Below, one piece after another: positions 504-16,824 of a stretch of DNA of 16,824 bases. How positions within the stretch are numbered: the stretch's first letter is position 1; each line of letters opens with the position of its first letter. The stretch lies in UHGV virus genome UHGV-0124552, one strand, 5' to 3'. A program made the position numbers and the translations under genes. The stretch comes from a virus. The notes below the pieces were generated by a model. The model was not told the origin of the DNA, searched no databases, and saw nothing but the letters and a program-made list of their open reading frames with translations.

Positions 504-1535
504 TCAAAAACTTGCTATTGATGTTGGTAGTGTTGCCAGCGGATTAAACCGTAATGCAGTTTCCAGGTGATCCGGTGCTAGATGTGCGTAACGCATAGTC
601 ATTTTTATGTCGTGATGTCCGAGGATTTTTTGCAAAGCAAGGATATTTCCACCCGACATCATAAAATGCGCCGCAAACGTATGGCGCAGAACGTGTGTCA
701 GTTGACCGCGAGGGAGCACGATAGACGTTTTTTCCATCACGGATAAAAATTGAAAATAGCAGTCTGTGAAGAAATTGAACCCATCGAGCGCCATGATCTC
801 TTCGTAAAGCTCTTTACTGATAGGGATGCTTCTGTTTTTCTTCCCCTTCGTTCTGACAAAGGTAATTCGGTATTTGGTCACCTGTGAGCGGGTAAGGTTT
901 ATTGCTTCTCGCCAGCGTGCGCCTGTGCTTAAGCATATCTTGACTACCAGTGCCAGAATTGGGTCCTGACGTTTGCAATCATCCAGCAGTTCAACAATCT
1001 GCTCATGGGTAAGCCATGCCATCTCTTTTTCTGCGATGGTGAATTTTCGCATGTTCTCCAGTGGGTTTGGATACGACCATTCGCCCAGGCGGGATAGTTC
1101 GCTAAAAACACTACTTAGATAGCTTTGCTCCAGGTTAATGGTGACCGGGCTGGCCCCTTTCTTCCATTTCTCGCTGAAGTAGATCTCACCTGTCAGTCGT
1201 TTATCTCGATAATGGGCAAACATTTTAGATGTGAGATCGGTTGCAAGGGGATTGCCCAGAGCGTCAACCATCAGCAGCAATTTGTCATAGACATGCTGCC
1301 CAGCAGTCAGAGATTTACCATGTAGTTTGAACCATAGCTCAACCACGTCTTTCAGGGTTCGACGATCTACTGATTCGCCCAGCCAGGGCTTTGCTTCGGT
1401 TTCTTCCATCGTGTGACGCTCAAAAGCCAGTGCTTCGCCTTTGGTGGCGAATTGTTTACGCACACGACGCCCACTACGTCCGGCGGGGTAACATTCGCAA
1501 AGCCATTTTCCTGTGGTGAGTTTTCGTACTGCCAT
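504..1535 (-). CDS. int: Tyrosine recombinase / phage integrase, P2/186 Int family
   Basis: N-terminus MAVRKL..GKWLCECYPAGRSGRRVRKQF closely resembles P2/186 Int (recalled from memory). C-terminal catalytic region LRHTFAAHF ... MRYAHL. ATG at 1535 has a GGAGGG RBS 8 nt upstream; the longer track ORF starting at 1613 is probably an over-extension. Confidence 0.9.
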   Translation of the reverse strand: MAVRKLTTGKWLCECYPAGRSGRRVRKQFATKGEALAFERHTMEETEAKPWLGESVDRRTLKDVVELWFKLHGKSLTAGQHVYDKLLLMVDALGNPLATDLTSKMFAHYRDKRLTGEIYFSEKWKKGASPVTINLEQSYLSSVFSELSRLGEWSYPNPLENMRKFTIAEKEMAWLTHEQIVELLDDCKRQDPILALVVKICLSTGARWREAINLTRSQVTKYRITFVRTKGKKNRSIPISKELYEEIMALDGFNFFTDCYFQFLSVMEKTSIVLPRGQLTHVLRHTFAAHFMMSGGNILALQKILGHHDIKMTMRYAHLAPDHLETALRFNPLATLPTSIASF

Positions 1536-1721
1536 AAAAAATGCCCTCCAATAGAGAGCATTTTTACTGTATGTATAACCAGTGTCAATGTATGAAATCT
1601 TGCGACCATACATCTCACTGAAGCCATAATGAAGTTGGCTATTTTTTGCTATGTGAGTATGTGACTTTTGCGGTTAGCCTGCGGCTCATTGTTATATTAG
1701 GCGCAGATATAAAAGCAAAAA

Positions 1722-1928: not shown

Positions 1929-2498
1929 TTACCTAACGTACTTAATTGTTAAACTTATAATTTTTCCAATTATTTCAACATCTTCTATCTTGCACTCGAA
2001 GGATCTGTTTCCACCTTCAACGAAGATTCTTCCACCGGGTAAACGAGTAATGTCGCGGATTGTTATTTCGCCATCAATACTTATTACCCATTTACCATCA
2101 CGTATATCATCAAATTCTTTATCACAAATAAATTCAGAATTGTTATCTGTGATGACAAAAGGTTTTTTAAACGTAGAGGGTAGAAATCCCTTATCAAAAA
2201 TATAAAAACCGTCTTCACGCAAGGCACCATCAGATAATACATATTTAGCAACTTCCATCGTATTTGTATTACCTGAAGTTTGCTTTGAACCATGTCCAGT
2301 TGTGAGCCAATTAAGCGAGGTGCCCGTTTCAAGGGCGCACTGGATTACCCATTCTGCTGGGAATGAGTCACGCATGTAGCGTGTAGCGAGTGTACTTTTA
2401 GAGATTCCTAAATGATCGCACAACGCCTGTCGAGTTTTGAATCCATAAGCTTCTACCATGCGCTCTATAGCGCCTCGTCCGCCTTTCTCCAAATTCAT
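1929..2498 (-). CDS. cI: Phage 186 CI-type immunity repressor (N-terminal HTH plus C-terminal oligomerisation domain)
   Basis: About 190 aa, with HTH-like segment TRQALCDHLGISKSTLATRYMRDS. Sits divergent to apl-cII as in phage 186. ATG at 2498 with GGAG 5 nt upstream; the track start at 2504 is GTG. Confidence 0.75.
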   Translation of the reverse strand: MNLEKGGRGAIERMVEAYGFKTRQALCDHLGISKSTLATRYMRDSFPAEWVIQCALETGTSLNWLTTGHGSKQTSGNTNTMEVAKYVLSDGALREDGFYIFDKGFLPSTFKKPFVITDNNSEFICDKEFDDIRDGKWVISIDGEITIRDITRLPGGRIFVEGGNRSFECKIEDVEIIGKIISLTIKYVR

Positions 2499-2522
2499 GG
2501 TCACTCCAAGTGAACTTTTATC

Positions 2523-2877: not shown

Positions 2878-3387
2878 ATGTTTGATTACCAAGTTTCCAA
2901 ACATCCACATTTTGATGAAGCCTGTCGTGCATTTGCACTGCGCCACAATCTGGTGCAACTGGCAGAACGTGCAGGCATGAATGTGCAGATTCTGCGGAAC
3001 AAGCTGAACCCAGCTCAGCCTCATTTATTAACCGCACCAGAAATCTGGCTGCTTACCGATCTGACTGAAGATTCAACGCTGGTAGATGGTTTTCTGGCAC
3101 AGATTCACTGCCTGCCATGTGTACCGATTAATGAGGTTGCAAAAGAGAAACTGCCGCATTACGTCATGAGCGCAACTGCAGAGATCGGACGTGTTGCAGC
3201 AGGTGCGGTATCTGGTGATGTAAAAACTAGTGCCGGTCGTCGTGATGCTATCAGCAGCATTAACTCTGTAACACGACTGATGGCGCTGGCTGCTGTTTCA
3301 TTGCAGGCCCGTTTACAGGCTAATCCTGCGATGGCGAGTGCAGTTGATACCGTGACTGGCCTCGGTGCTTCATTCGGTTTGCTGTGA
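2878..3387 (+). CDS. cII: 186 CII-like lysogeny establishment regulator
   Basis: 169 aa from ATG 2878 (GAGG RBS 8 nt upstream); same size and position as 186 CII. The track start at 2872 is TTG. Confidence 0.6.
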
Positions 3388-3394
3388 GGTGCTT

Positions 3395-3595
3395 ATGCTG
3401 ACGAAAGAACCATCATTTGCATCGCTGCTGGTAAAACAAAGCCCGGCAATGCACTACGGTCACGGCTGGATCATGGGTGAGGATGGTAAACGCTGGCATC
3501 CGTGCCGTTCACAAGATGAATTGCTGGCAGAACTATCTACGAAAAAACGGGGGAACAAATGGCTATTGAAGGCGCTGCGGCGACTGTTCCATTAA
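3395..3595 (+). CDS. Small early-operon protein (66 aa), hypothetical; position equivalent to 186 fil / P2 orf78
   Basis: ATG at 3395 follows the cII stop with GAGGTG just upstream. The track ORF begins at GTG 3365, inside cII. Confidence 0.5.
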   Translation: MLTKEPSFASLLVKQSPAMHYGHGWIMGEDGKRWHPCRSQDELLAELSTKKRGNKWLLKALRRLFH

Positions 3596-3900
3596 GCCCC
3601 GGTGAACGCCTGAATGGACTTAATCACATAGCGGAATTAAGGGCAAAAGTTTTTGGCCTGAATATTGAGTCAGAGCTTGAGCGGTTTATTAAAGATATGC
3701 GTGATCCACGGGATATCAATAACGAACAAAATAAACGAGCACTGGCAGCCATATTCTTTATGGCAAAAATTCCGGCTGAACGTCATAGCATCAGCATCAA
3801 TGAGCTGACCACTGACGAAAAGCGGGAGTTGATTAAAGCAATGAATCATTTTCGTGCAGTGGTGAGCTTATTTCCCAGACGGCTAACCATGCCGAATTAA
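3559..3900 (+). CDS. Hypothetical early phage protein (113 aa)
   Basis: ATG at 3559 with GGGGG RBS 5 nt upstream. Overlaps the previous ORF by 37 nt in another frame. Confidence 0.5.
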   Translation: MAIEGAAATVPLSPGERLNGLNHIAELRAKVFGLNIESELERFIKDMRDPRDINNEQNKRALAAIFFMAKIPAERHSISINELTTDEKRELIKAMNHFRAVVSLFPRRLTMPN

Positions 3901-3967
3901 CCAACTAATGAAATTAATGGCGTAAACCCGCCGAGCATCCCTTTATCTAAATTCAGGAGAATTGATT

Positions 3968-4201
3968 ATGCGTAATATTGAGATCCTCACGACTAAAACC
4001 GGATCGGATGATGCAGGGCTTAATATTTTACTGACAGTGGCTCGTCTGGAAGAACGCCGGGCAAGGGCTGAAGCAATGGCAGCTCGCCTTGATAGCCTGG
4101 CGTGTCATATCTCATCCCGTCAGCTAAACCACGTGGAAGCAGCAGAACTACTGCGTGTAACTGCTGAAGCAATCCAGAACGAAGCGCAGGAGATCCACTA
4201 A
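3968..4201 (+). CDS. Hypothetical early phage protein (77 aa)
   Basis: AGGAGA RBS (3954-3959) 8 nt before ATG 3968. Its stop overlaps the start of the next gene (TAATG). Confidence 0.5.
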   Translation: MRNIEILTTKTGSDDAGLNILLTVARLEERRARAEAMAARLDSLACHISSRQLNHVEAAELLRVTAEAIQNEAQEIH

Positions 4202-4428: not shown

Positions 4429-5282
4429 GCACCATCCTGAAATGGGCGGGAAATAAAACCGCCATTATGTCCGAACTGAAAAAACACCTTCCTGCTGGCC
4501 CGCGACTGGTTGAACCTTTCGCGGGTTCCTGTGCTGTGATGATGGAGACGGATTACCCCAGCTATCTGGTTGCGGATATTAATCCTGATTTAATCAACCT
4601 CTATAAAAAGGTTGCCGCTGATTGTGAATCGTTTATATCTCGCGCCAGAGTTTTATTTGAGATCGCAAACAGGGAGGTGGTTTATTACAACATAAGGCAG
4701 GAGTTTAATTACTCCACTGAAATTACTGATTTCATGAAAGCGGTATATTTCCTGTATCTCAATCGTCACGGTTACCGTGGTTTATGTCGCTATAACAAGA
4801 GCGGGCATTTCAACATTCCCTACGGTAATTATAAAAATCCGTATTTCCCTGAAAAAGAAATTCGCGCATTTGCAGAAAAGGCCCAGCGAGCAACGTTTAT
4901 CTGCGCCAGCTTTGATGAAACGCTGGCGATGTTGAAGGCGGGGGATGTGGTGTATTGCGATCCGCCGTATGACGGTACGTTTTCCGGCTATCACACTGAC
5001 GGCTTCACTGAAGATGACCAGTATCACCTGGCATCTGTTCTTGAACATCGGTCATCAGAAGGACATCCGGTCATTGTTTCTAACAGTGACACATCCCTGA
5101 TCCGTTCGCTGTATCGCAATTTTACTCACCACTACATCAAGGCAAAACGCAGCATCGGTGTGGCAGCTGGCGAGGGTAAATCAGCAACAGAAATCATTGC
5201 TGTTTCCGGGCCGCGCTGCTGGGTGGGATTTGATTATTCGCGTGGCGTGGATAGTTCTGCCGTGTACGGAGTACGTGCATGA
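4425..5282 (+). CDS. dam: DNA N6-adenine methyltransferase (Dam-like)
   Basis: N-terminal LKWAGNK and catalytic CDPPYDG (DPPY motif). GGAGG RBS 7 nt before ATG 4425. Stop overlaps the gpA start (ATGA). Confidence 0.85.
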
Positions 5283-7693
5283 GTCATGCCGATATGAACA
5301 ACTGCTGCGGCTTTAACGAGGCTGCCGCAGCATTCTCATGGAACAGCCCGAAAAAGGCCATTAACCCTTATCTGGACCCGGCGGAAGTTGCGCCGGTTTC
5401 TACGCTTTCAAACCTGATCACTCTGTACGCTGCCGATAACGAGCAGGAACAGTTGCGCCGCGAGGCACTGAGTGATCAGGTCTGGGAGCGTTATTTCTTT
5501 AATGAATCACGTGATCCTGTCCAGCGCGAAATGGAGCAGGATAAGCTCATTAGCCGGGCAAAGCTGGCGCATGAGCAGCAGCGTTTTAATTCAGACATGG
5601 TCATTCTGGCGGACGTCAACGCCCAGCCTTCCCATATCAGCAAGCCGCTGATGCAACGTATTGAATACTTCAGCAGCCTGGGCAGGCCAAAGGCTTATTC
5701 CCGCTATTTACGTGAGACGATTAAGCCATGTCTGGAACGACTGGAGCATGTACGCGACAGTCAGCTATCTGCATCTTTTCGCTTTATGGCAAGCCATGAA
5801 GGGCTGGATGGCCTGCTGATCCTGCCTGAAATGAGTCAGGATCAGGTGAAACGCCTGTCCACCCTGGTAGCTGCGCATATGAGTATGTGCCTTGATGCAG
5901 CTTGTGGTGATTTGTATGCCACCGATGACGTTAAGCCAGAAGAAATCCGCAAGACATGGGAAAAGGTGGCAGCGGAAACCCTGCGTCTGGATGTCATCCC
6001 ACCTGCGTTTGAGCAACTCCGTCGGAAAAGAAACCGCCGTAAACCCGTGCCCTATGAACTCATTCCGGGTTCGCTGGCGCGTATGTTGTGCGCCGACTGG
6101 TGGTATCGGAAATTATGGAAGATGCGTTGCGAATGGCGGGAAGAGCAGTTGCGCGCTGTTTGCCTGGTCAGCAAAAAAGCATCTCCTTATGTCAGCTATG
6201 AAGCCGTGATGCATAAACGTGAGCAGCGCCGTAAGTCGCTGGAGTTTTTCCGTTCTCATGAACTGGTGAACGAAGACGGCGACACGCTGGACATGGAGGA
6301 TGTGGTAAACGCCAGCAGCAGCAACCCTGCGCATCGCCGCAATGAGATGATGGCCTGTGTTAAAGGTCTGGAGCTTATCGCGGAAATGCGCGGTGACTGC
6401 GCCGTTTTCTACACTATCACCTGTCCGTCGCGTTTCCATTCCACGCTAAATAACGGCAGACCAAACCCGACCTGGACAAACGCGACGGTAAGACAAAGCA
6501 GCGATTATCTGGTCGGCATGTTTGCTGCATTTCGTAAGGCGATGCACAAAGCCGGGTTGCGCTGGTATGGCGTGCGGGTGGCTGAGCCGCATCATGATGG
6601 CACAGTTCACTGGCACCTGTTGTGTTTCATGCGCAAAAAAGACCGCCGTGCCATCACTGCATTACTGCGTAAGTTTGCCATCCGTGAAGACCGCGAGGAG
6701 CTGGGCAATAACACTGGGCCGCGCTTTAAGTCTGAGTTGATTAACCCGCGCAAAGGAACGCCGACAAGCTACATCGCGAAATATATCAGTAAGAACATTG
6801 ACGGTCGTGGTCTGGCTGGCGAGATCAGCAAGGAAACGGGTAAATCTCTGCGTGATAACGCTGAATACGTGAATGCCTGGGCGTCTCTGCATCGTGTTCA
6901 GCAATTCCGCTTCTTTGGTATTCCGGGGCGTCAGGCTTACCGTGAACTTCGCTTGCTGGCTGGTCAGGCGGCAAGGCAACAGGGTGACAAAAAAGCAGGT
7001 GCGCCGGTACTGGATAACCCGCGTCTTGATGCCATTCTGGCTGCTGCTGATGCTGGTTGTTTTGCCACCTACATCATGAAGCAGGGCGGCGTACTGGTTC
7101 CCCGTAAATATCACCTCATCAGAACCGCTTATGAAATCAACGAAGAGCCGACCGCCTATGGCGATCACGGCATTCGTATTTATGGCATCTGGTCACCCAT
7201 TGCAGAGGGCAAGATCTGCACTCATGCAGTGAAGTGGAAAATGGTTCGTAAAGCCGTTGACGTTCAGGAGGCGGCAGCCGACCAGGGCGCTTGCGCCCCT
7301 TGGACTCGTGGCAATAACTGTCCCCTTGCTGAAAATTTGTACCAACAAGGGAAAGACAAATCAGCTGATGGGGATACCAGAACGGATATCACCCGTATGG
7401 ATGACAAGGAGTTGCACGATTACCTGCACAGTATGAACAAAAAAGAACGCCGGGAACTGGCTGCAAGGTTACGCCTGGTGAAACCGAAACGGCGTAGAGA
7501 CTACAAACAGCGAATTACAGACCATCAACGACAGCAGCTCGTCTATGAACTGAAGTCCAGAGGATTTGACGGCAGCGAGAAAGAGGTCGATTTACTCCTT
7601 CGCGGCGGCAGCATTCCGTCAGGAGCAGGCCTGCGTATTTTCTATCGGAACCAGCGTTTGCAGGAAGATGATAAGTGGCGGAACCTGTATTAA
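5279..7693 (+). CDS. A: P2 gpA-family rolling-circle replication initiation endonuclease
   Basis: 804 aa, with HUH-type motif VHWHLLCF and active-site tyrosine motif YIAKYISKN. Last gene of the early operon. Confidence 0.85.
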
Positions 7694-7785
7694 TTACGCG
7701 GATTAACAATTCGTGCTCTTAATAATACCAGGCATATCAGGCTGATGAACGTAAAAAAACGTTTTACATCAGTAAGATTATTATA

Positions 7786-7805
7786 TACTGTAAATATAAA
7801 CAGTG
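7786..7805 (+). promoter_or_regulatory. LexA (SOS) box overlapping a candidate promoter for the downstream Tum/DinI-like genes
   Basis: TACTGTAAATATAAACAGTG fits the CTGT-N8-ACAG LexA consensus (TACTGTATATATATACAGTA) very closely. Possible -35 TTTACA (7763-7768) and -10 TATACT (7784-7789). Confidence 0.7.
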
Positions 7806-7846
7806 GTTATGTATACAGTATTGCTTGTGGTGTCATAGGAGGAAAG

Positions 7847-8035
7847 ATGCAGGACTATTTTTTGGAGTCTTTGAAGCTCCAACGCATTGATTTTTTTCTT
7901 AAGCTTGTAGCGGCTAGTGAGTGTAGTGATGAAGAGAAGGGGCTGGCCCTGCAGTGGGTTTCTGAATTGACAGATGAACTCATGGCAAAAATCAGAAGCC
8001 ACGAATACAACCGCTCAATGGATGTCATCAGCTGA
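7847..8035 (+). CDS. Small SOS-controlled protein (62 aa), possibly the N-terminal antirepressor part of a split 186 Tum-like protein
   Basis: GGAGG RBS 5-6 nt before ATG 7847, directly downstream of the LexA box. Followed within 10 nt by a DinI-like ORF. Confidence 0.45.
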   Translation: MQDYFLESLKLQRIDFFLKLVAASECSDEEKGLALQWVSELTDELMAKIRSHEYNRSMDVIS

Positions 8036-8045
8036 GGGGACTTTT

Positions 8046-8279
8046 ATGCGCATTGAAATAATGATCGATAAAGAGCAGAAGATTAGCCAGTCTATCCTAG
8101 ACGCCCTTGAATCAGAGCTTTACCGCAATCTGCGCCCCCTGTATCCCAAAACGGTAATTCGTATCCGTAAAGGTAGCTCTAACGGTGTGGAACTGACCGG
8201 ACTGCAACTGGACGAAGAAAGGAAACAAGTGATGAAAATTATGCAGAAGGTGTGGGAAGACGACAGCTGGCTGCATTAA
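8046..8279 (+). CDS. DinI/Tum/MsgA-family protein (DinI-like)
   Basis: MRIEIMIDK ... ILDALESEL ... KVWEDDSW aligns by eye to E. coli DinI (MRIEVTIAK ... IDALAGEL ... ETWESADDW). GAGGGG RBS 6 nt upstream. Confidence 0.7.
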   Translation: MRIEIMIDKEQKISQSILDALESELYRNLRPLYPKTVIRIRKGSSNGVELTGLQLDEERKQVMKIMQKVWEDDSWLH

Positions 8280-8663
8280 GAAACGTTGCTGGCGTCTGAA
8301 CTTGCTTCTGGCGTCAGCAAGGTTGAACAACGAGCTATGCGAGGCGTTAGCCATCTGATCAAAAGACATCAAATATCATATTGTATATCGTGGTCAAACG
8401 CTGGAAACAATCATTCCCGATCAGAGGGGCTTCTTTCAATGTCCAAAAGAGTGAGATAGAGGATACAGGATGGGAAGAGCTTTTGATTAATTATCGTCCA
8501 AGTTTTTCAAAAGCTTCTTATCTGGCGGTCGATACATGATTTACTGTTGGATATGGTATTTAAAATTAATCTTTACACTGTGGTATATGCAGAATAGGAT
8601 ATTATCAATACAATCAAACTGTTTTCATACGGTTATTAATATTGCAATGTTATAGGTAATGTC

Positions 8664-9782
8664 ATGTATCTTTTCAAGTATTACCGTCCGGACTTCTTCT
8701 TCGAGAAAGCTATTCGTTATAATGAATTATATTTTTCCGCTCCTGCGCAATTGAATGATCCCAATGATCTCAATATAGATTATCGCTTCGATAATAAATT
8801 GAAATTATGGGATATTTTATTGCGTTCTCCTTGCGATAAATCCTATAAAAATTTGAGTCACATATTGGATTTGAGTAATTTGAAAATACATAAGGGATTG
8901 AATCGTATTTTTAGAGGAAAAAAAATAAAAAGTAGCATTGAGTCATTAGATAGCCTGTTCGACTCACACGTTGATGAGATACGTAAGATCATAGATGATG
9001 GTTTACTACCTATCAATGTGATTAATTCTGCTATTTATGGAAATATTCCTGAACCACGCCAATATTTGGTTTCACTTTGCGAGAACAGTATCAAAGAAAG
9101 GTTGTATAGGAAAATAGTTCCTGCAGTATTCAGTGTGTCATTTTCAGCTAATGCGTTAGATCGTATGATGTGGGCGCATTATGCTGCTGGCTTTAGTGGT
9201 TGTGTTGTGATTTATGAAACGCAGGATTTTAATATTGATGGTATACCCTATACTGGAATGAAGCTAAGAGAAAATTTATTTTCATCAGATAAATTTAATT
9301 TTCCAGTTAAGCCAATAAAATATAGTAATCAGGCTAAAGAGGTTTCACTTCTAGACCCAAGCGCAAATGTTGCAGAGTTATTTTTAACTAAAAATAGATT
9401 TTGGAGATATGAAGCTGAATATCGAATGTTTATTCCGGAGGCAAATGCAGGAATAGGGAGTGAGCGGCATGTTCAAAGACGCGTAAATCGAAATATTGGA
9501 CATATTTTTCATCATGATGCTAATGTTGTTAAAGGGATCATTTTTGGTCCTAGAATGTGTGAAATGAAAAAAGAAAGCATATGGAATTGTATCAAGTCAA
9601 ATATGGAGAATTCAAATTCAACAATATGTTATTTTTTTGACTCTGAGTTATCAGCATCAGGAAAGATTACTATTTCAAAAGGGCAACGAGCGGAAAAAAT
9701 GAAAAATTTCACTTTGTTCAGGAACAAGTTAAGTCAGACGGAAATGGCTAAAGTTTTGAAGGAAATTGGCATTACGAACTAA
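8664..9782 (+). CDS. DUF2971-like protein (372 aa) of unknown function; candidate single-gene defence/abortive-infection protein
   Basis: N-terminal YRPDFFFEKAIRYNELYFSAPAQLNDPND, central VFSVSFSANALDRMMWAHYAAGFSGCVVIY and C-terminal KNRFWRYEAEYRMF match the motif pattern I associate with DUF2971. Very AT-rich, preceded by about 380 bp of AT-rich non-coding DNA and followed by a terminator. Confidence 0.6.
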   Translation: MYLFKYYRPDFFFEKAIRYNELYFSAPAQLNDPNDLNIDYRFDNKLKLWDILLRSPCDKSYKNLSHILDLSNLKIHKGLNRIFRGKKIKSSIESLDSLFDSHVDEIRKIIDDGLLPINVINSAIYGNIPEPRQYLVSLCENSIKERLYRKIVPAVFSVSFSANALDRMMWAHYAAGFSGCVVIYETQDFNIDGIPYTGMKLRENLFSSDKFNFPVKPIKYSNQAKEVSLLDPSANVAELFLTKNRFWRYEAEYRMFIPEANAGIGSERHVQRRVNRNIGHIFHHDANVVKGIIFGPRMCEMKKESIWNCIKSNMENSNSTICYFFDSELSASGKITISKGQRAEKMKNFTLFRNKLSQTEMAKVLKEIGITN

Positions 9783-9848
9783 CCTAACAACAGTGCATGC
9801 CTATGCTGCCTGAATTTGCATGACCGTTTGAGGATCGTTTTTGCTAAG

Positions 9849-9875
9849 GCCCGCCAGAACTGGCGGGCTTTTGCG
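9849..9875 (+). terminator. Rho-independent terminator after the DUF2971-like gene
   Basis: GCCCGCCA (9849-9856), loop gaac, TGGCGGGC (9861-9868), then TTTTGCG. Confidence 0.65.
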
Positions 9876-9917
9876 TGGATCAGGCACCTGCATGAAAACC
9901 ACTACACAAAGCGGGCA

Positions 9918-9936
9918 GGCGTGGCGGGGATACGAG
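9918..9936 (+). other. cos: cos-like sequence (possible cohesive-end site or remnant of a P2/186-type phage)
   Basis: GGCGTGGCGGGGATACGAG matches the remembered 186 cos GGCGTGGCGGGGAAAGCAT in the first 13 nt (15 of 19 overall). It lies in a short GC-rich island between two AT-rich insertions, in the same orientation relative to Q as P2 cos. Confidence 0.4.
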
Positions 9937-10007
9937 CGCGCGCAGCGGGTGGAAACTCAGATTTGAATGTTGTATAAAAGATGGGATCATTCTGAGGAAA
10001 AGTGGAT

Positions 10008-10913
10008 ATGAAAAAGAAAACTATTCCGGAGTTGCAGAAGCAAAATCTGGCAAATTTAATTAAAAGTCGGCTTTTTCAACAGAAAAATAAAAATAAAGTT
10101 ACTGTTTTCCTTTGCGGGGGCGATTTGAATGATCCGTTTTTTTGTAGAAATAAAGTTAAAAGAGTGTTGGAAACACATCCCAAAATAGAAATATTCTATC
10201 CTGAGGAGTTGTTTGATGAGCTTTTGTATGGACAAGGTCAGCATAGTCTTTTAAGTTTGGAGAATATTTTAGCTGATTCAGTCGATGTTATTATTATTAT
10301 TCCTGAAAGCCCAGGGTCTTTCGCTGAATTGGGCGCATTTTCAAATAATGAAAAACTGTGCAAAAAAATGATATGTCTTCAGGATGACAAATTCAAACTT
10401 AAAAAAAGCTTTCTTAATTATGGGCCTATAAAACTGCTTCGGCGTGCTAATAGCGGTGCAGTATTGCGAGGAGATTTGTCGACTCTTGAAAGCTTGAGTA
10501 CAGGTAAAGCTTTTTATAATAGAATTATAAAAAGTATTAATGACATCAAAAAAAATAACCCAGTTAATCACTCAATAGATAATATTCTTCACGCTCGGCG
10601 TTTTATACTGCCATGTATATATTTGATGGATGGTATAGATAATATACTTCTATATGAGCTATTACATTTGGTGACTAAGAAAGATGCTATTCTTTGTGAA
10701 ATTATCGTTAAGTCTGTTATTTCAAGCTTGATTAAAGAGTCAATAATTAGGCGTTCAGTTCAAGGATACCATATTACAGAAATTGGTATGCAATACGTTC
10801 TTGAGCATTTTGATCGAAAGGCTTTGGACAATCTACGACTGGATATGATGAACTTCGAAAATCGTGGTAAAACAATACTCCACTATGATAGGATGCGTTT
10901 TGCGCACCCTTAG
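10008..10913 (+). CDS. Retron effector: nucleoside 2-deoxyribosyltransferase-like (NDT-like) protein, as in the Ec86 (Retron-Eco1) family
   Basis: VFLCGG ... VIIIIPESPGSFAELGAFS resembles the NDT-like fold motif with a catalytic Glu. Its stop codon lies inside the retron a1 repeat, immediately upstream of msr-msd and the RT. GAGGA RBS 9 nt before ATG 10008; the track start at 10002 is GTG. Confidence 0.65.
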   Translation: MKKKTIPELQKQNLANLIKSRLFQQKNKNKVTVFLCGGDLNDPFFCRNKVKRVLETHPKIEIFYPEELFDELLYGQGQHSLLSLENILADSVDVIIIIPESPGSFAELGAFSNNEKLCKKMICLQDDKFKLKKSFLNYGPIKLLRRANSGAVLRGDLSTLESLSTGKAFYNRIIKSINDIKKNNPVNHSIDNILHARRFILPCIYLMDGIDNILLYELLHLVTKKDAILCEIIVKSVISSLIKESIIRRSVQGYHITEIGMQYVLEHFDRKALDNLRLDMMNFENRGKTILHYDRMRFAHP

Positions 10914-11061
10914 CGAGTGGCTTCTCCGGAAGTTCACTGGACAGTGTTTCGCTGTCCTACATACAATCTGAAGTTTTACCAGTTCCCTCATTGAAAGGAG
11001 AACATCTCCCGATGTTCTCCTTTCACTTCGGAATCTGATTTTTATGACGTAAGGGTGCGCT
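10901..11061 (+). ncRNA. msr-msd: Retron msr-msd non-coding RNA (template/primer for msDNA), Ec86-like
   Basis: Inverted repeats a1 TGCGCACCCTTA (10901-10912) and a2 TAAGGGTGCGC (11050-11060). The 5' 17 nt TGCGCACCCTTAGCGAG and the 3' TGACGTAAGGGTGCGC are identical to the Ec86 ncRNA as I remember it. msr hairpin GGACAG-tgtttcg-CTGTCC (10939-10957). Long msd hairpin GAAAGGAGAACATC-tccc-GATGTTCTCCTTTC (10993-11024). Confidence 0.75.
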
Positions 11062-11062
11062 C

Positions 11063-12037
11063 ATGACTTCCGCAACACCATCTCAGGTTTTTCGCTTACG
11101 CAATCTTGGATTGCCTGTTATGTCCTCTTTAGAGGATATGTCTAGAGAAATGCGTTTATCAGTAGACATACTCCGGTTGTACATTTATCGTGCTGACAAA
11201 TACTATAAGGTTTATTCGTTGCCAAAAAGAGATGGCAAGAGATCCCGCATCATTTCACAGCCATCACGTGAGCTGAAGGCATTGCAAGCTTGGGTGTTAA
11301 GAAACATCCTTGATAAGTTACATTCATCCCCATTTTCCAAAGGCTTTGAAAAAGGGCAATCAATATTAAATAATGCCAGCCCACATGTAGGAGCTAACTA
11401 TGTATTAAATATTGATTTAGAAGATTGTTTTAATACTATTCTGATAGAGAAAATCTATACTGTTTTTCATTCTCTGGGGTATAACTCTACTATTTCTAAT
11501 GCTTTAGCAAGATTGTGTTCATTTAATGGTTCGCTACCTCAAGGTGCACCATCTTCTCCAAAGATTGCGAATCTTGTTTTAACTAAATTAGATTATAGAA
11601 TACATGGATATGCAGGTAGTAAGGGGATCGTATTTACTCGATATGCCGATGATTTGACTTTATCTGCTCAATCTTTAAAAAAAATACTTAAAGCTAAGTC
11701 ATTTGTATGCTCTATAATACCAAGTGAATCTTTGAAGGTTAATTATAATAAAGTTGCGATTCATGGCCCCAAAGCAAGGAAGGAGGTTACTGGGCTCGTT
11801 TTATCTATTGATAATGTTGGAGTTGGCAGAATACGTTATCGCGAAATTAGAAGTAAGATCCATTATCTGGCGGTAAAAAGAAATTCTGATTTCGAACATG
11901 TTAAAGGACTTATTGCGTTTGTTAAAAGTGTAGACAAGAAAAACTATAGAAAATTGATGACTTTCTCAAATAAAATGTCTGAAGCATATGGGGTTGATCT
12001 AAGTGTTCTTTTTCCTAAAAACAAAAAGGCCATTTAA
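11063..12037 (+). CDS. ret: Retron reverse transcriptase (Ec86 / Retron-Eco1-like)
   Basis: N-terminus FRLRNLGLPVM and QPSRELKALQAWVLRNILDKL closely resemble Ec86 RT (from memory). Also QGAPSSPKIANL, the catalytic YADD (RYADDLTLSA) and the retron-specific VTG motif (KEVTGLVL). Start codon abuts the a2 repeat. Confidence 0.85.
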   Translation: MTSATPSQVFRLRNLGLPVMSSLEDMSREMRLSVDILRLYIYRADKYYKVYSLPKRDGKRSRIISQPSRELKALQAWVLRNILDKLHSSPFSKGFEKGQSILNNASPHVGANYVLNIDLEDCFNTILIEKIYTVFHSLGYNSTISNALARLCSFNGSLPQGAPSSPKIANLVLTKLDYRIHGYAGSKGIVFTRYADDLTLSAQSLKKILKAKSFVCSIIPSESLKVNYNKVAIHGPKARKEVTGLVLSIDNVGVGRIRYREIRSKIHYLAVKRNSDFEHVKGLIAFVKSVDKKNYRKLMTFSNKMSEAYGVDLSVLFPKNKKAI

Positions 12038-14989: not shown

Positions 14990-15883
14990 ATGACAGTGAA
15001 AGCAAAGCGTTTTCGCATCGGGGTGGAAGGTGCCACCACCGACGGACGCGAAATCCAGCGTGAATGGCTGGAACAGATGGCAGCCAGCTACAACCCGGCG
15101 GTGTATACCGCGCTGATTAACCTTGAGCACATCAAGTCTTATCTGCCGGACAGCACCTTTAACCGCTACGGCAAGGTGACGGCGCTGTTTGCTGAAGAAA
15201 TCACGGAAGGTCCGCTGGCAGGCAAGATGGCGCTGTATGCCGACGTTGAGCCAACAGAGTCCCTGGTGGAGCTGGTGAAAAAAGGCCAGAAATTATTCAC
15301 CTCTATGGAAGTCAGCCCAAAGTTTGCTGATACGGGCAAAGCCTACCTGGTCGGGCTGGCTGCCACTGATGACCCTGCCAGTCTGGGCACTGAAATGCTG
15401 ACATTCAGCGCCAGTGCAGCCCATAACCCGCTGGCAAACCGCAAGCAGAATCCCGCCAATCTCTTTACCGCCGCAGAGGAAACGGTGATCGAACTGGAAG
15501 AAATCCAGGAGGACAAGCCGTCCCTGTTTGCCCGCGTCACGGCGCTGTTCACCAAAAAAGAGCAGTCCGACGATGCCCGGTTCTCTGATGTGCATAAGGC
15601 CGTGGAGCTGGTCGCCACTGAGCAGCAGAACCTGAGCGCACGGACCGAAAAATCCCTGTCTGAGCAGGAAGAACGTCTGTCTGAGCTGGAGACTGCCCTG
15701 CAGGCACAGCAGACCGCCTTTAACGAACTGGTGAATAAGCTGAGTCATGAAGACAGCCGCCAGGACTACGCGAAGCTGACCATCAATGGTGAGGTGCTCT
15801 ATGAAGTGGACCTTATCAACATGGTGGAAATTGTGGACGGTGTGGACCTGATGGAAGCGCACCGCAACGCCCTCGGCCTCTGA
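14990..15883 (+). CDS. O: Capsid scaffolding protein (P2 gpO-like)
   Basis: FRIGVEGATTDGREI ... INLEH ... TSMEVSPKFADTGKAYLVGLAATDDPASLGTE ... ASDDARFSDVH aligns by eye along the length of remembered P2 gpO. GGAG RBS 8 nt upstream. Confidence 0.85.
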   Translation: MTVKAKRFRIGVEGATTDGREIQREWLEQMAASYNPAVYTALINLEHIKSYLPDSTFNRYGKVTALFAEEITEGPLAGKMALYADVEPTESLVELVKKGQKLFTSMEVSPKFADTGKAYLVGLAATDDPASLGTEMLTFSASAAHNPLANRKQNPANLFTAAEETVIELEEIQEDKPSLFARVTALFTKKEQSDDARFSDVHKAVELVATEQQNLSARTEKSLSEQEERLSELETALQAQQTAFNELVNKLSHEDSRQDYAKLTINGEVLYEVDLINMVEIVDGVDLMEAHRNALGL

Positions 15884-15894
15884 TATATCTGAAC

Positions 15895-15912
15895 GGCGCG
15901 GGATACCGCGCC
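15895..15912 (+). other. GC-rich hairpin in the short O to E' spacer (possible terminator or deletion-junction landmark)
   Basis: GGCGCGG-gata-CCGCGCC. No T-run follows, so not a canonical intrinsic terminator. Confidence 0.3.
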
Positions 15913-15937
15913 AGAACCCAATTGACAGGACAGCAAA

Positions 15938-16080
15938 ATGAGCGATAAGCAGACTGAAAAGACCATTCAACTGGATACCCCCATCAAGCGCGGTAAAACA
16001 GAAATCACCGAAATTGTGCTGCGTAAACCGCAGTCCGGTGCGCTGCGCGGTACACGCCTGCAGGCCATTATGGATACCTG
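15938..16080 (+). pseudogene. Truncated tail assembly chaperone gpE-like N-terminal fragment (E')
   Basis: First ~47 aa (TIQLDTPIKRGKTEITEIVLRKPQSGALRGTRLQAIMD) fit the gpE-type tail assembly chaperone pattern. Beyond about 16080 the frame reads into unrelated residues before stopping at 16246. Confidence 0.5.
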
Positions 16081-16383
16081 GTGGGTACGGATGAAAACGT
16101 GCTGGTACTTAATCGCACTTATGCCAACCGGAGCAACGCTGAACGGGCAGCGAAAATGCAGTGGGAACGCCTGCAACGCGGCGTTGCGTCATTCTCGCTA
16201 CAACTGGCGGAAGGGCGGGCAGATCTCTACACAGAAATGCCTGTGAAGGTCAGTGGCTTTAAACAGCCGATAGATGATGCGGAATGGACCATTACGACTC
16301 TGACGCATACCGTCAGCCCGGATAACGGTTTTACGACCAGTCTGGAGCTTGAAGTGAGGATTGATGATTTCGAAATGGAATGA
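16081..16383 (+). pseudogene. C-terminal fragment of tail protein gpD (D')
   Basis: ERAAKMQWERLQRG ... RADLYTEMPVKVSGFK ... GFTTSLELEV resembles the C-terminus of P2 gpD (from memory). It lacks the ~290 N-terminal residues and is out of frame with the upstream E' fragment. Confidence 0.55.
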
Positions 16384-16473
16384 TTCTTCGCAATGGAGAA
16401 CTTTTAAGTTTGCAAAATGGAATAATGCGGTATCATTATTGTGAATTTAGCAAAAATGGGGAGAGCTCGAAAA

Positions 16474-16692
16474 ATGATGATTTGCCCACTGTGTGGAAGT
16501 GCCGCCCATACTCGCAGCAGTTTTCAGGTATCTTCATTGACCAAAGAGCGTTACAACCAGTGCCAGAACATTAACTGCAGCCATACTTTTGTTACCCATG
16601 AAACTTTTGTTCGTTCGATTGCAACGCCAAAAGAGTCAAATCCGGTTCAGCCGCATCCAATGAAATCAGGACAGGTGGCGCTCTCTCTTTGA
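16474..16692 (+). CDS. ogr: Ogr-family zinc-finger late gene transcriptional activator
   Basis: 72 aa; CPLCGSAAHTRSS ... KERYNQCQNINCSHTF ... RPHP closely matches remembered P2 Ogr (CPLCQHAAHARTS ... KERYHQCQNVNCSATF ... RPHP). ATG at 16474; the track start at 16441 is GTG. Confidence 0.9.
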   Translation: MMICPLCGSAAHTRSSFQVSSLTKERYNQCQNINCSHTFVTHETFVRSIATPKESNPVQPHPMKSGQVALSL

Positions 16693-16715
16693 CGCTGCCG
16701 CCATTTTGTCGCCAT
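16693..16715. repeat. attR: attR core: right copy of the 23-bp imperfect direct repeat CGCTGCCGCCATTTTGTCGCCAT
   Basis: 21 of 23 identical to 148-170. Begins immediately after the ogr stop codon. Confidence 0.6.
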
Positions 16716-16778
16716 CGTTAAAGAATAGTGCTTCTAACATCATGATTTTAAACAGCTTAAATTTCAGACAACAAAAAA

Positions 16779-16821
16779 CCCATCAACCTTGAACCGAAAT
16801 GGCGGGGTTGATGGGCTCCAC
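16779..16821 (-). terminator. Rho-independent terminator-like hairpin in the right flank
   Basis: cccatcaacc (16779-16788) pairs with ggttgatggg (16806-16815) across a 17-nt loop. On the - strand the stem is followed by TTTTTTGTTG. The loop is long, so confidence is moderate. Confidence 0.35.
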
Positions 16822-16824
16822 AAA

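Follow-up and report, generated by a model that had tools for sequence, protein, structure and literature searches.

A Fels-2/186-type tumA-dinI operon with a putative double LexA operator in a deletion-remnant prophage

In phage 186, the CI immunity repressor is inhibited by Tum, a protein under LexA control (PMC7708051). Tum is a single polypeptide of 146 amino acids in which a DinI-like half is fused to the C-terminal side. The 186 record also has a DinI-only product, Tum95.5 ("modulates SOS induction"), starting at an internal GTG, so that by annotation 186 yields the DinI part alone as well. A divided form of the gene is described by Lemire et al. 2011 (PMC3121763). With reference to Bunny et al. 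2002, they state that tum is divided into two genes in Fels-2 and PSP3 and, on the basis of a personal communication, that the upstream gene of PSP3 encodes the antirepressor. For Fels-2, the summary of Bunny 2002 given in PMC12626290 reports that all surviving Salmonella LT2 lexA-null mutants had lost the prophage; the lethality that Fels-2 causes in a lexA null requires a LexA-controlled inducer. The dinI-gfoA/gftA operons of Gifsy-1 and Gifsy-2 are also LexA-repressed and pair a DinI homologue with a small antirepressor, the repressor that it binds being non-cleavable, but there dinI comes first, in the opposite order, and the phages are lambdoid (PMC3121763). We take LexA control of Fels-2, the activity of PSP3 TumA and the mechanism of 186 Tum from this literature.

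Here we examined the sequence elements, homologies, conservation and selection of a related locus in a 16,824-nucleotide stretch of the virus genome UHGV-0124552 (the window; positions refer to this stretch). The window holds a P2/186-like element with 186-type CI, Apl, CII and gpA all present. The host element is a deletion remnant of roughly 16.7 kb that cannot make virions. Downstream of gpA lies a predicted LexA-controlled operon of which ORF1 is the first gene. This module is the well-known DNA-damage switch of the Fels-2/186 type. It is common and already described, its split Tum included, and it forms the standard SOS-induction unit of a very common prophage lineage: 1124 of 5426 complete E. 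coli genomes, about one in five, contain DNA that is at least about 80% identical to it. We consider it highly probable, at roughly 85%, that the module is an SOS-induction operon belonging to a Fels-2-like member of the P2/186 prophage family (Peduoviridae) and equivalent to p95-tum of 186. The sole additions to the known module are the colicin-style double LexA operator and the deletion-remnant nature of the element that hosts it. The features of the locus are as follows.

1929-2504, minus strand: 186-type CI immunity repressor (Pfam), presumed target of the tumA-like protein
5279-7693: gpA (Pfam Phage_GPA, 1.4e-127)
7763-7768, plus strand: TTTACA, putative -35 hexamer of the SOS promoter (186 p95 equivalent), by analogy with the 186 record
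7786-7791, plus strand: TACTGT, probable -10 hexamer that doubles as the left arm of LexA box 1, from the geometry of 186 p95
7786-7805, no strand assigned: LexA box 1, TACTGTAAATATAAACAGTG, the sole exact CTGT-N8-ACAG in the window
7801-7820, no strand assigned: LexA box 2, CAGTGGTTATGTATACAGTA, matching the consensus at 15 of 20 positions and overlapping box 1 by 5 nt as in a colicin-type dual operator
7837-7843, plus strand: AGGAGGA, Shine-Dalgarno sequence of ORF1 as read from the sequence, 3 nt ahead of the ATG at 7847
7847-8035, plus strand: ORF1, tumA-like gene for a 62-aa putative antirepressor, probably homologous to the Tum N-terminal half of 186
8034-8039, plus strand: GAGGGG, Shine-Dalgarno sequence of ORF2 as read from the sequence, overlapping the ORF1 stop codon (TGA, 8033-8035)
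8046-8279, plus strand: ORF2, dinI-like gene (tumB equivalent) for a 77-aa protein with a Pfam DinI match
8282-8324, plus strand: GC-rich stem-loop, weakly indicated as a possible partial terminator or RNA-stabilising hairpin

Fels-2 (NC_010463) carries effectively the same module. Fels-2 and the window share about 97% nucleotide identity over 7694-8277, with the Fels-2 genes STM2728 and STM2726.1 encoding proteins 96.8% and 98.7% identical to those of ORF1 and ORF2, respectively, and with the same dual LexA operator, 199-nt start offset and position after gpA. They differ around it: Fels-2 is an intact phage, whereas the window element is a remnant; the downstream cargo is an orf97-like gene in Fels-2 and a PDC-S31 gene with a type II-A retron in the window; and the Fels-2 CI is 38.9% identical to the window CI overall, its N-terminal domain reaching 69% and its C-terminal domain 27%. 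PSP3 (NC_005340) likewise has two separate genes, tumA and tumB, under a LexA box after gpA, and its TumB is 76.6% identical to ORF2. Its two genes, however, are in frame, with one TAG plus 3 nt between them, and its TumA belongs to another subfamily, phrog_1993. The p95-tum operon of 186 occupies the same position, has a LexA box overlapping the -10 TACTGT and begins with an N-terminal half homologous to ORF1; it differs in its fused polypeptide, in having orf97 next in the operon and in a CI whose N-terminal domain is only 43% identical to that of the window. Both PSP3 and 186 have a single LexA box, in contrast to the two in the window.

The preliminary description of this locus took ORF1 and ORF2 to be the two halves of Tum. 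For ORF1, BLASTP gave no alignment with either 186 Tum or PSP3 TumA, and in a tblastn search against all phage records neither 186 nor PSP3 was among the 40 matches listed of 76, which comprised close relatives and ESSI-type proteins at 41-49% identity. The likeness surfaced at the level of families. ORF1 matches phrog_698 (E 5.9e-38), the PHROG family that residues 1-70 of 186 Tum also match, in register, at 6.7e-6, and ORF1 itself matches the PSP3 TumA family phrog_1993 at 0.002. Alignment of the ORF1 family with the Tum N-half family by hhalign gave a probability of 96.3% (E 1.5e-9), with residues 4-43 paired with residues 4-43 without a gap. These profile matches, which span about 40 residues, support a remote homology between ORF1 and the Tum N-terminal half of 186 despite the null BLASTP result.

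ORF1 is under strong purifying selection (dN/dS 0.05-0.12 at dS 1.0-1.3) and is the first gene past the LexA operator in every architecture, phages without dinI included. A HMMER search of 1.84 billion representatives returned 67 relatives, nearly all of them stand-alone proteins of 50-100 aa, with no obvious DinI fusion among the 67. An AlphaFold model folds ORF1 into a helical hairpin (pLDDT 89.4) with a conserved Cys26 in the turn. A comparison with the Gifsy antirepressors GfoA and GftA covered PHROG annotation: none of the families matched by ORF1 or by 186 Tum 1-70 is annotated as an antirepressor.

We weighed whether only the DinI-like gene might matter, as an SOS-modulating moron, with the 62-aa ORF an unrelated protein or a leader peptide and induction following some other route. 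ORF1 has no meaningful family in Pfam or NCBIfam and no relative in a PDB sequence search, and a Foldseek comparison of its model with the PDB was uninformative, returning generic hairpins only (E >1). Together with the lack of a BLASTP match to Tum, these results speak for this reading, as does the near invariance of ORF1 among phages whose whole-length CI is only 39-55% identical to the window CI. The literature consulted also yielded no direct antirepressor assay of the Fels-2-type 62-aa protein. On the other side, the profile homology to the Tum N-terminal half is significant, contains no gaps and keeps the two proteins in register from their N-termini, ORF1 is strongly selected, and it keeps its first place behind the operator even where dinI is missing. 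The lexA-null lethality summarized in PMC12626290 requires a LexA-controlled inducer, and the N-terminal domain of CI is conserved among phages that share this type of ORF1. We therefore regard a role for the DinI-like gene alone as unlikely and favor ORF1 as the TumA-type component of an SOS-induction operon.

The presumed partner of ORF1, the window CI, matches Pfam Phage_CI_repr (2.8e-33) and Phage_CI_C (1.1e-28) as well as the 186 CI structure 2FJR (E 3.5e-31). From the whole-length CI identities TumA had seemed to show no co-variation with CI, a view that was softened once the domains were separated. In a comparison of nine sequences, phages sharing this TumA type have CI N-terminal domains that are 60-79% identical and C-terminal domains that are only 27-59% identical; the 186 CI N-terminal domain is 39-47% identical to those of the group. 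This pattern suggests that the N-terminal DNA-binding domain of CI is probably the target of the TumA-like protein, although it is a correlation across nine sequences and N-terminal conservation may have other reasons.

ORF2 is a member of the DinI family, as had been proposed, with a Pfam DinI (PF06183) match at E 1.3e-22 and 80.4 bits against a cut-off of 24.2. Its length is 77 aa and not 78, the number of codons with the stop included, and because of this the two products add up to 139 rather than the 140 aa first given; the 62 aa of ORF1 and the 10-nt separation (8036-8045) were counted correctly. In a full-length alignment, residues 1-75 pair with residues 1-77 of E. coli DinI (PDB 1GHH, E 3.6e-6), the acidic C-terminal WED-DSW motif included, and the protein is 41% identical to the DinI-like C-terminal half of 186 Tum, which bears out that part of the Tum comparison. 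Against the NCBIfam DinI equivalog model it scores 42 bits, below the 111-bit cut-off, and is thus a paralogue rather than the host DinI. ORF2 is conserved at dN/dS 0.03-0.09. Its family membership and the annotation of 186 Tum95.5 suggest that it may bind RecA filaments and modulate their coprotease activity. Just downstream, the stem-loop at 8282-8324 has 19-nt arms and a folding energy of about -23 to -27 kcal/mol. It lacks a U tract, and its z-score of -1.66 puts it barely ahead of shuffled sequences. The corresponding position in 186 carries a partial terminator, t95a. A terminator scan of 7600-8700 called none, and Rfam gave no RNA family in the module and cargo region.

Whether the two genes are a natural split or a frameshifted tum had been left as alternatives. 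ORF1 and ORF2 lie in different frames with a start-to-start offset of 199 nt, and set beside 186 Tum proper the window module has no single ORF of ~146 aa with both halves, a stop codon and the 10-nt gap standing between them. Because both ORFs show dN/dS of 0.03-0.12 at dS about 1, have their own ribosome-binding sites and keep this layout across four genera, comparative sequence evidence identifies the split as natural and old, the normal and anciently fixed form in the lineage and not a frameshift. The alternative is a tum recently broken by a frameshift or nonsense mutation, which would make the module a decaying pseudogene. The different frames across so short a gap, the single 146-aa Tum of 186 and the remnant state of the surrounding prophage could all be read this way. 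Yet intact Salmonella, Klebsiella and Escherichia phages, Fels-2 included, share the two-gene layout, and similar DNA is present in the one-fifth of complete E. coli genomes noted above. Both ORFs have remained under purifying selection while dS is nearly saturated, each with a Shine-Dalgarno sequence of its own; a purine-rich stretch comparable to that of ORF2 occurs in Fels-2, phi4.1, SEN8 and SopEphi. Gap length varies by lineage, giving start offsets of 199 or 200 nt, and neither ORF is broken; tumA-type genes are also found alone, without dinI, and the close relatives of the 186 Tum N-terminal half are mostly stand-alone proteins of 63-91 aa. A recent break in tum is very improbable and already refuted by the selection and distribution data.

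The naturally split operon is preceded by a near-perfect SOS box, TACTGTAAATATAAACAGTG, found exactly where the preliminary description had placed it, at 7786-7805, and starting 93 nt past the gpA stop. Box 1 has two perfect arms and shares 17 of the 20 nt of the consensus TACTGTATATATATACAGTA, a match that none of 200 shuffles reached. Its single exact CTGT-N8-ACAG compares with 0.2 expected by chance in the 16.8-kb window. A LexA box stands 5' of the tumA-type gene in 11 of 11 related loci examined, 186 and PSP3 included. Across diverged relatives the operator is the best-conserved intergenic stretch, at 77-94% identity versus 47-59% for the spacer and 25-55% for the 5'UTR. Because the box is kept in all 11 loci while its flanks diverge, and with a homologous site at 186 p95, conservation supports box 1 as a real LexA operator. 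The promoter itself can be placed by analogy. In the 186 record TACTGT is annotated as the p95 -10, overlapping the LexA site, within an analogous -35/-10 pair, and TTTACA is invariant and fixed 17 nt 5' of TACTGT in the window, Fels-2, phi4.1, SEN8 and SopEphi; these hexamers would then be the -35 and -10 of the putative SOS promoter.

A second, overlapping box at 7801-7820 had been missed. Its right arm, ACAG, is perfect and its left arm, GTGG, is degenerate, and with box 1 it makes up a 35-bp dual operator (7786-7820) of two 20-bp boxes offset by 15 bp. The Fels-2 group retains box 2, and 186, PSP3, ESSI-2, ESSI2_ev129 and YenM lack it. A 37-bp palindrome (7785-7821) was considered as a separate element and rejected, since the two overlapping LexA boxes explain it.

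This arrangement recalls the operators of colicin genes. A 38-nt query (7786-7823) found matches in 253 plasmid records; those sampled lie directly upstream of the colicin Y (cya) and pesticin (pst) genes, with 89-92% identity over 37 nt. Colicin Y (pNGF1) and pesticin (pB1172) have the same 35-bp design of two 20-bp boxes offset by 15 bp, and box 2 of colicin Y is identical to that of the window. The promoter and leader sequences flanking these operators are unrelated to those of the window. Read from the sequence, the colicin Y boxes appear to start just past the -10, whereas box 1 of the window appears to coincide with it, and the colicin-type boxes control a bacteriocin, whereas the window operator precedes the putative antirepressor gene of a prophage. 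A very improbable reading, that the LexA-like palindrome is a chance or vestigial match and the operon is constitutive or controlled by CI, Apl or Ogr, could draw on a sigma-70 consensus scan of 7600-8700 that called no promoter and on the 35 of 200 window shuffles with at least one exact CTGT-N8-ACAG, but it runs against the 17/20 match and its absence from shuffles, the preferential conservation of the operator among diverged relatives, a box in every related locus, near-identity to bona fide colicin and pesticin operators and the genetic evidence for LexA control of Fels-2 summarized in PMC12626290.

Colicin dual operators are described as taking up a pair of LexA dimers and as being very tightly repressed (PMC2994835, citing Lu & Chak 1996). 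By analogy, two LexA dimers may occupy the dual operator of the window, box 2 included, and its damage threshold may be higher than that set by one box in 186 and PSP3. In an undamaged cell, LexA on the two boxes would cover the -10 and the transcription start, and basal expression would be abolished as in colicin genes. DNA damage would stimulate LexA self-cleavage through RecA and free the promoter, yielding two separately translated proteins. We infer that the 62-aa helical hairpin, the equivalent of PSP3 TumA, would bind CI and keep it off its operators, derepressing the early lytic operon (Apl, CII, Fil, Dam and gpA), while the 77-aa DinI homologue would act on RecA filaments to adjust how strong the SOS signal is or how long it lasts. 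The window prophage is a deletion remnant, and derepression therefore cannot end in phage release.

Two of these observations can be joined in a tentative reading, which we consider possible but doubtful: the Fels-2 lineage would have exchanged the single LexA box seen in 186 and PSP3 for a colicin-type double operator with a markedly higher, all-or-none threshold, and its almost invariant TumA would read the conserved N-terminal domain of CI (FPA[E/D]W[V/I]IQC) and nothing specific to immunity. If so, one TumA could derepress, in trans, Fels-2-like prophages that differ widely in the remainder of CI, and defective remnants with defence cargo could induce, or be induced by, co-resident relatives. 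The double operator offers a simple, testable reason for a possible difference in damage threshold between Fels-2-type prophages and 186, and the pattern of TumA versus CI-domain conservation offers an inexpensive hypothesis on the binding site of the antirepressor and on cross-induction of related prophages.

In nearly all records the 62-aa gene is labelled "hypothetical protein", misnamed "levan regulatory protein" or lengthened to a 96-aa form that runs across the operator. We rejected the 96-aa ORF from 7745 as a real gene: it would start upstream of its own promoter and operator, its homologues share the Met start of the 62-aa form, and the RefSeq annotation is likewise 62 aa long. A safe annotation for the 62-aa gene would be putative antirepressor of the TumA type.

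The window contains a P2/186-family prophage in which gpA is followed by a Tum/DinI module, a cargo island, and then portal Q and terminase P. The module, composed of a LexA operator, a tumA-like gene (ORF1) and a dinI-like gene (ORF2), is real. Its preliminary description as a LexA-driven split Tum is correct in interpretation and was already known, all of that interpretation having been published or annotated.

Features of the window
504-1613, minus: integrase
1929-2504, minus: 186-type CI repressor (186 CI structure 2FJR, match 3.5e-31)
Between the CI repressor and gpA: Apl/Cox-like gene, CII (CP76), Fil, DksA-like zinc-finger gene, Dam methylase
5279-7693: gpA replication gene, 804 aa (Pfam Phage_GPA, 1.4e-127)
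7786-7805: LexA box 1, TACTGTAAATATAAACAGTG, 93 nt past the gpA stop
7801-7820: LexA box 2, CAGTGGTTATGTATACAGTA, perfect right arm, degenerate left arm, 15/20 to consensus
7847-8035: ORF1, tumA-like, 62 aa, ribosome-binding site AGGAGGA upstream
8046-8279: ORF2, dinI-like, 77 aa (DinI family, Pfam 1.3e-22)
8664-9782: DUF2971 / PADLOC PDC-S31 candidate gene (1e-23)
10002-10913: type II-A retron NDT effector (2.6e-97)
11063-12037: type II-A retron reverse transcriptase (4.9e-123)
15938-16246: gpE-like tail protein, N-terminal fragment only
16081-16383: gpD, C-terminal 100 aa only
16441-16692: Ogr-like zinc-finger activator
16770-16824, minus: RybB sRNA, truncated at the window edge (Rfam RF00110, 62.6 bits, E 1.2e-10)

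The SOS box reported after the gpA stop is borne out. Box 1 is the sole exact CTGT-N8-ACAG in the window (chance expectation 0.2) and agrees with the 20-nt LexA consensus in 17 of its 20 bases, a score reached in none of 200 shuffles. An overlapping second box had been overlooked: box 1 makes up the left side of an imperfect 37-bp palindrome that can be read as two 20-bp LexA boxes offset by 15 bp, and its final base is G, where the consensus has A, because the same base serves as the G of the box 2 left arm. Box 2 is shared by the whole Fels-2 group (window, Fels-2, E. coli LD22-1, phi4.1, SEN8, SopEphi and 500465-1); 186, PSP3, ESSI-2, ESSI2_ev129 and Yersinia phage vB_YenM_06.16-2 have one box and lack box 2. 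Diverged pairs retain 77-94% identity in the 35-bp operator, compared with 47-59% in the promoter spacer and 25-55% in the leader. A simple consensus scan did not call the module promoter. A -35 TTTACA is invariant, always exactly 17 nt from TACTGT. Because the 186 record annotates TACTGT as the -10 of p95, the SOS promoter of tum, LexA at box 1 would, by analogy, occlude the -10.

A 38-nt operator stretch matched 253 plasmid records. Those sampled are 89-92% identical and sit directly in front of the colicin Y gene on pNGF1 and the pesticin gene on pB1172, and box 2 of the window is identical to colicin Y box 2. Since this similarity ends at the operator edges, it may reflect either shared LexA constraints or the transfer of a very small module.

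ORF1 had been likened to the N-terminal region of Tum, the one-piece SOS antirepressor of coliphage 186, and profile homology upholds this likeness. In pairwise BLASTP, ORF1 matched neither 186 Tum (146 aa) nor PSP3 TumA (60 aa). ORF1 falls in phrog_698 (5.9e-38) and also matches phrog_8554 (1.1e-8) and the TumA family phrog_1993 (0.002; residues 7-48 on profile 7-48), while residues 1-70 of 186 Tum match phrog_1993 (2e-23), phrog_8554 (3.3e-12) and phrog_698 (6.7e-6; residues 7-44 on 7-44). With hhalign, an alignment of 30 relatives of ORF1, collected by exhaustive HMMER search, and one of 105 186-type N-halves matched gap-free at 96.3% probability (E 1.5e-9; residues 4-43 on 4-43), sharing the pattern E7, R13, L20, A22, C26, A34-L35 and E40. 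AlphaFold predicts a confident helical hairpin for ORF1 (pLDDT 89.4), with helices at 2-23 and 28-61 and Cys26 in the turn. RefSeq holds the 62-aa form as 'hypothetical protein'. In many database entries the gene is extended to 96 aa by a start at 7745, ahead of the very promoter and LexA operator that belong to it, and in one UniRef cluster it is called 'Levan regulatory protein'; the long form and the name both seem to be misannotations.

ORF2, rightly assigned to the DinI family, can be aligned over its whole length with E. coli DinI (1GHH) and is 76.6% identical to PSP3 TumB and 41% to the C-terminal half of 186 Tum. Directly 3' of its stop codon is a GC-rich hairpin (8282-8324; 11-bp core stem, no U tract); 186 carries the partial terminator t95a at the equivalent position.

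The preliminary lengths of 62 and 78 aa with a 10-nt gap hold, except that ORF2 has 77 aa; the two reading frames differ. Of the two origins offered, a natural split stands. A frameshifted tum is rejected on low dN/dS, intact ORFs and stand-alone relatives. For the window against SEN8, SopEphi and Klebsiella phage phi4.1, dN/dS is 0.05-0.07 for ORF1, at dS 1.0-1.3, and 0.03-0.09 for ORF2; over all diverged pairs ORF1 gives 0.05-0.12. In the window and these three phages both ORFs are intact, and a separate Shine-Dalgarno sequence precedes each. Their starts lie 199 nt apart in one sub-lineage and 200 nt apart in the second, so the two frames are independent. Tum-type N-halves also occur alone: ESSI2_ev129 (Escherichia; 701-913), ESSI-2 (Cronobacter; about 701-868) and vB_YenM_06.16-2 (677-859) carry a tumA-type gene with a single LexA box and no adjacent dinI-like gene, so the antirepressor half is found in fused, split and solitary form. 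Most close relatives of the 186 N-half are proteins on their own (63-91 aa), and the 186 record has an internal GTG start yielding a DinI-only product annotated 'modulates SOS induction'. The split tumA/dinI arrangement is thus a stable, ancient and common architecture. The ESSI-2 gene is without any annotation in its record. In Escherichia phage 500465-1 (599-1231), the tumA-like protein is locally scrambled at residues ~31-37, and the dinI-like ORF starts differently and reads through at its C-terminus. The pattern suggests indels or sequencing errors, not a distinct variant.

In the proposed mechanism, LexA would keep the module promoter shut until DNA damage induces its self-cleavage and ORF1 and ORF2 are transcribed. 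The TumA-like hairpin would then sequester the immunity repressor CI, as 186 Tum does (PMC7708051, PMC3121763), and the DinI-like protein would act on RecA filaments, tuning the SOS signal. Among phages whose CI shares only 39-55% identity with that of the window, ORF1 remains 85-100% identical. When nine CI sequences were divided at the conserved WLxxGxG motif, N-terminal HTH domains were 60-79% identical among phages with this TumA type and C-terminal domains mostly ~30% (range 27-59%); the 186 CI N-terminal domain was 39-47% identical. This correlation over nine sequences fits TumA contacting the CI DNA-binding domain. Some relatives whose tumA-like gene is identical or nearly so encode a longer CI: that of E. 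coli LD22-1 (293 aa; 3174-4055) has a duplicated N-terminal HTH domain, the copies 63% and ~50% identical to the window N-terminal region, and that of Klebsiella phage 4LV2017, longer too, seems to contain a second copy.

Over its 607 bp the module shares 97% identity with Salmonella phage Fels-2 and with dozens of phages of Klebsiella, Escherichia and Salmonella. Of 5426 complete E. coli genomes, 1124 contain similar DNA (at least ~80% identity). Fels-2 carries the same module as STM2728 ('hypothetical') and STM2726.1 ('DinI family, similar to TumB of PSP3'). Tum has been described as 'split into two halves' in Fels-2 and PSP3, with the upstream PSP3 gene encoding the antirepressor (PMC3121763). 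PSP3 tumA/tumB shares the logic of the module but differs in subfamily, operator number and frame arrangement, its two genes being in frame with one TAG between them. The module would work like 186 p95-tum, but its two halves are not joined in one polypeptide, the feature that defines Tum proper. According to the summary of Bunny et al. 2002 in PMC12626290, all lexA-null survivors of Salmonella LT2 had lost Fels-2, genetic support for the mechanism from a near-identical module. Neither the double operator nor the correlation with CI domains, each a small increment, turned up in the literature searched, which did not include Bunny et al. 2002.

The defence cargo island (8664-12037) separates the dinI-like gene from portal gene Q. 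Rfam identified no retron RNA in it; a hairpin is present at 9843-9874, within the stretch (about 9783-10001) that may hold the msr-msd.

The prophage is a ~16.7-kb deletion remnant, as seen at 14990-16824. Residues 1-259 of scaffold gpO are joined to the last ~40 residues of a head-closure (gpL-like) protein at ~15765-15770. Because the element in the window lacks capsid and lysis genes and most of the tail genes, with only gpE-like and gpD fragments left of the tail, it cannot form virions alone; DNA damage may derepress the early operon (Apl, Fil, gpA), yet no virions would come from the element itself. RybB at the window edge probably marks host flank adjoining the right end of the prophage.
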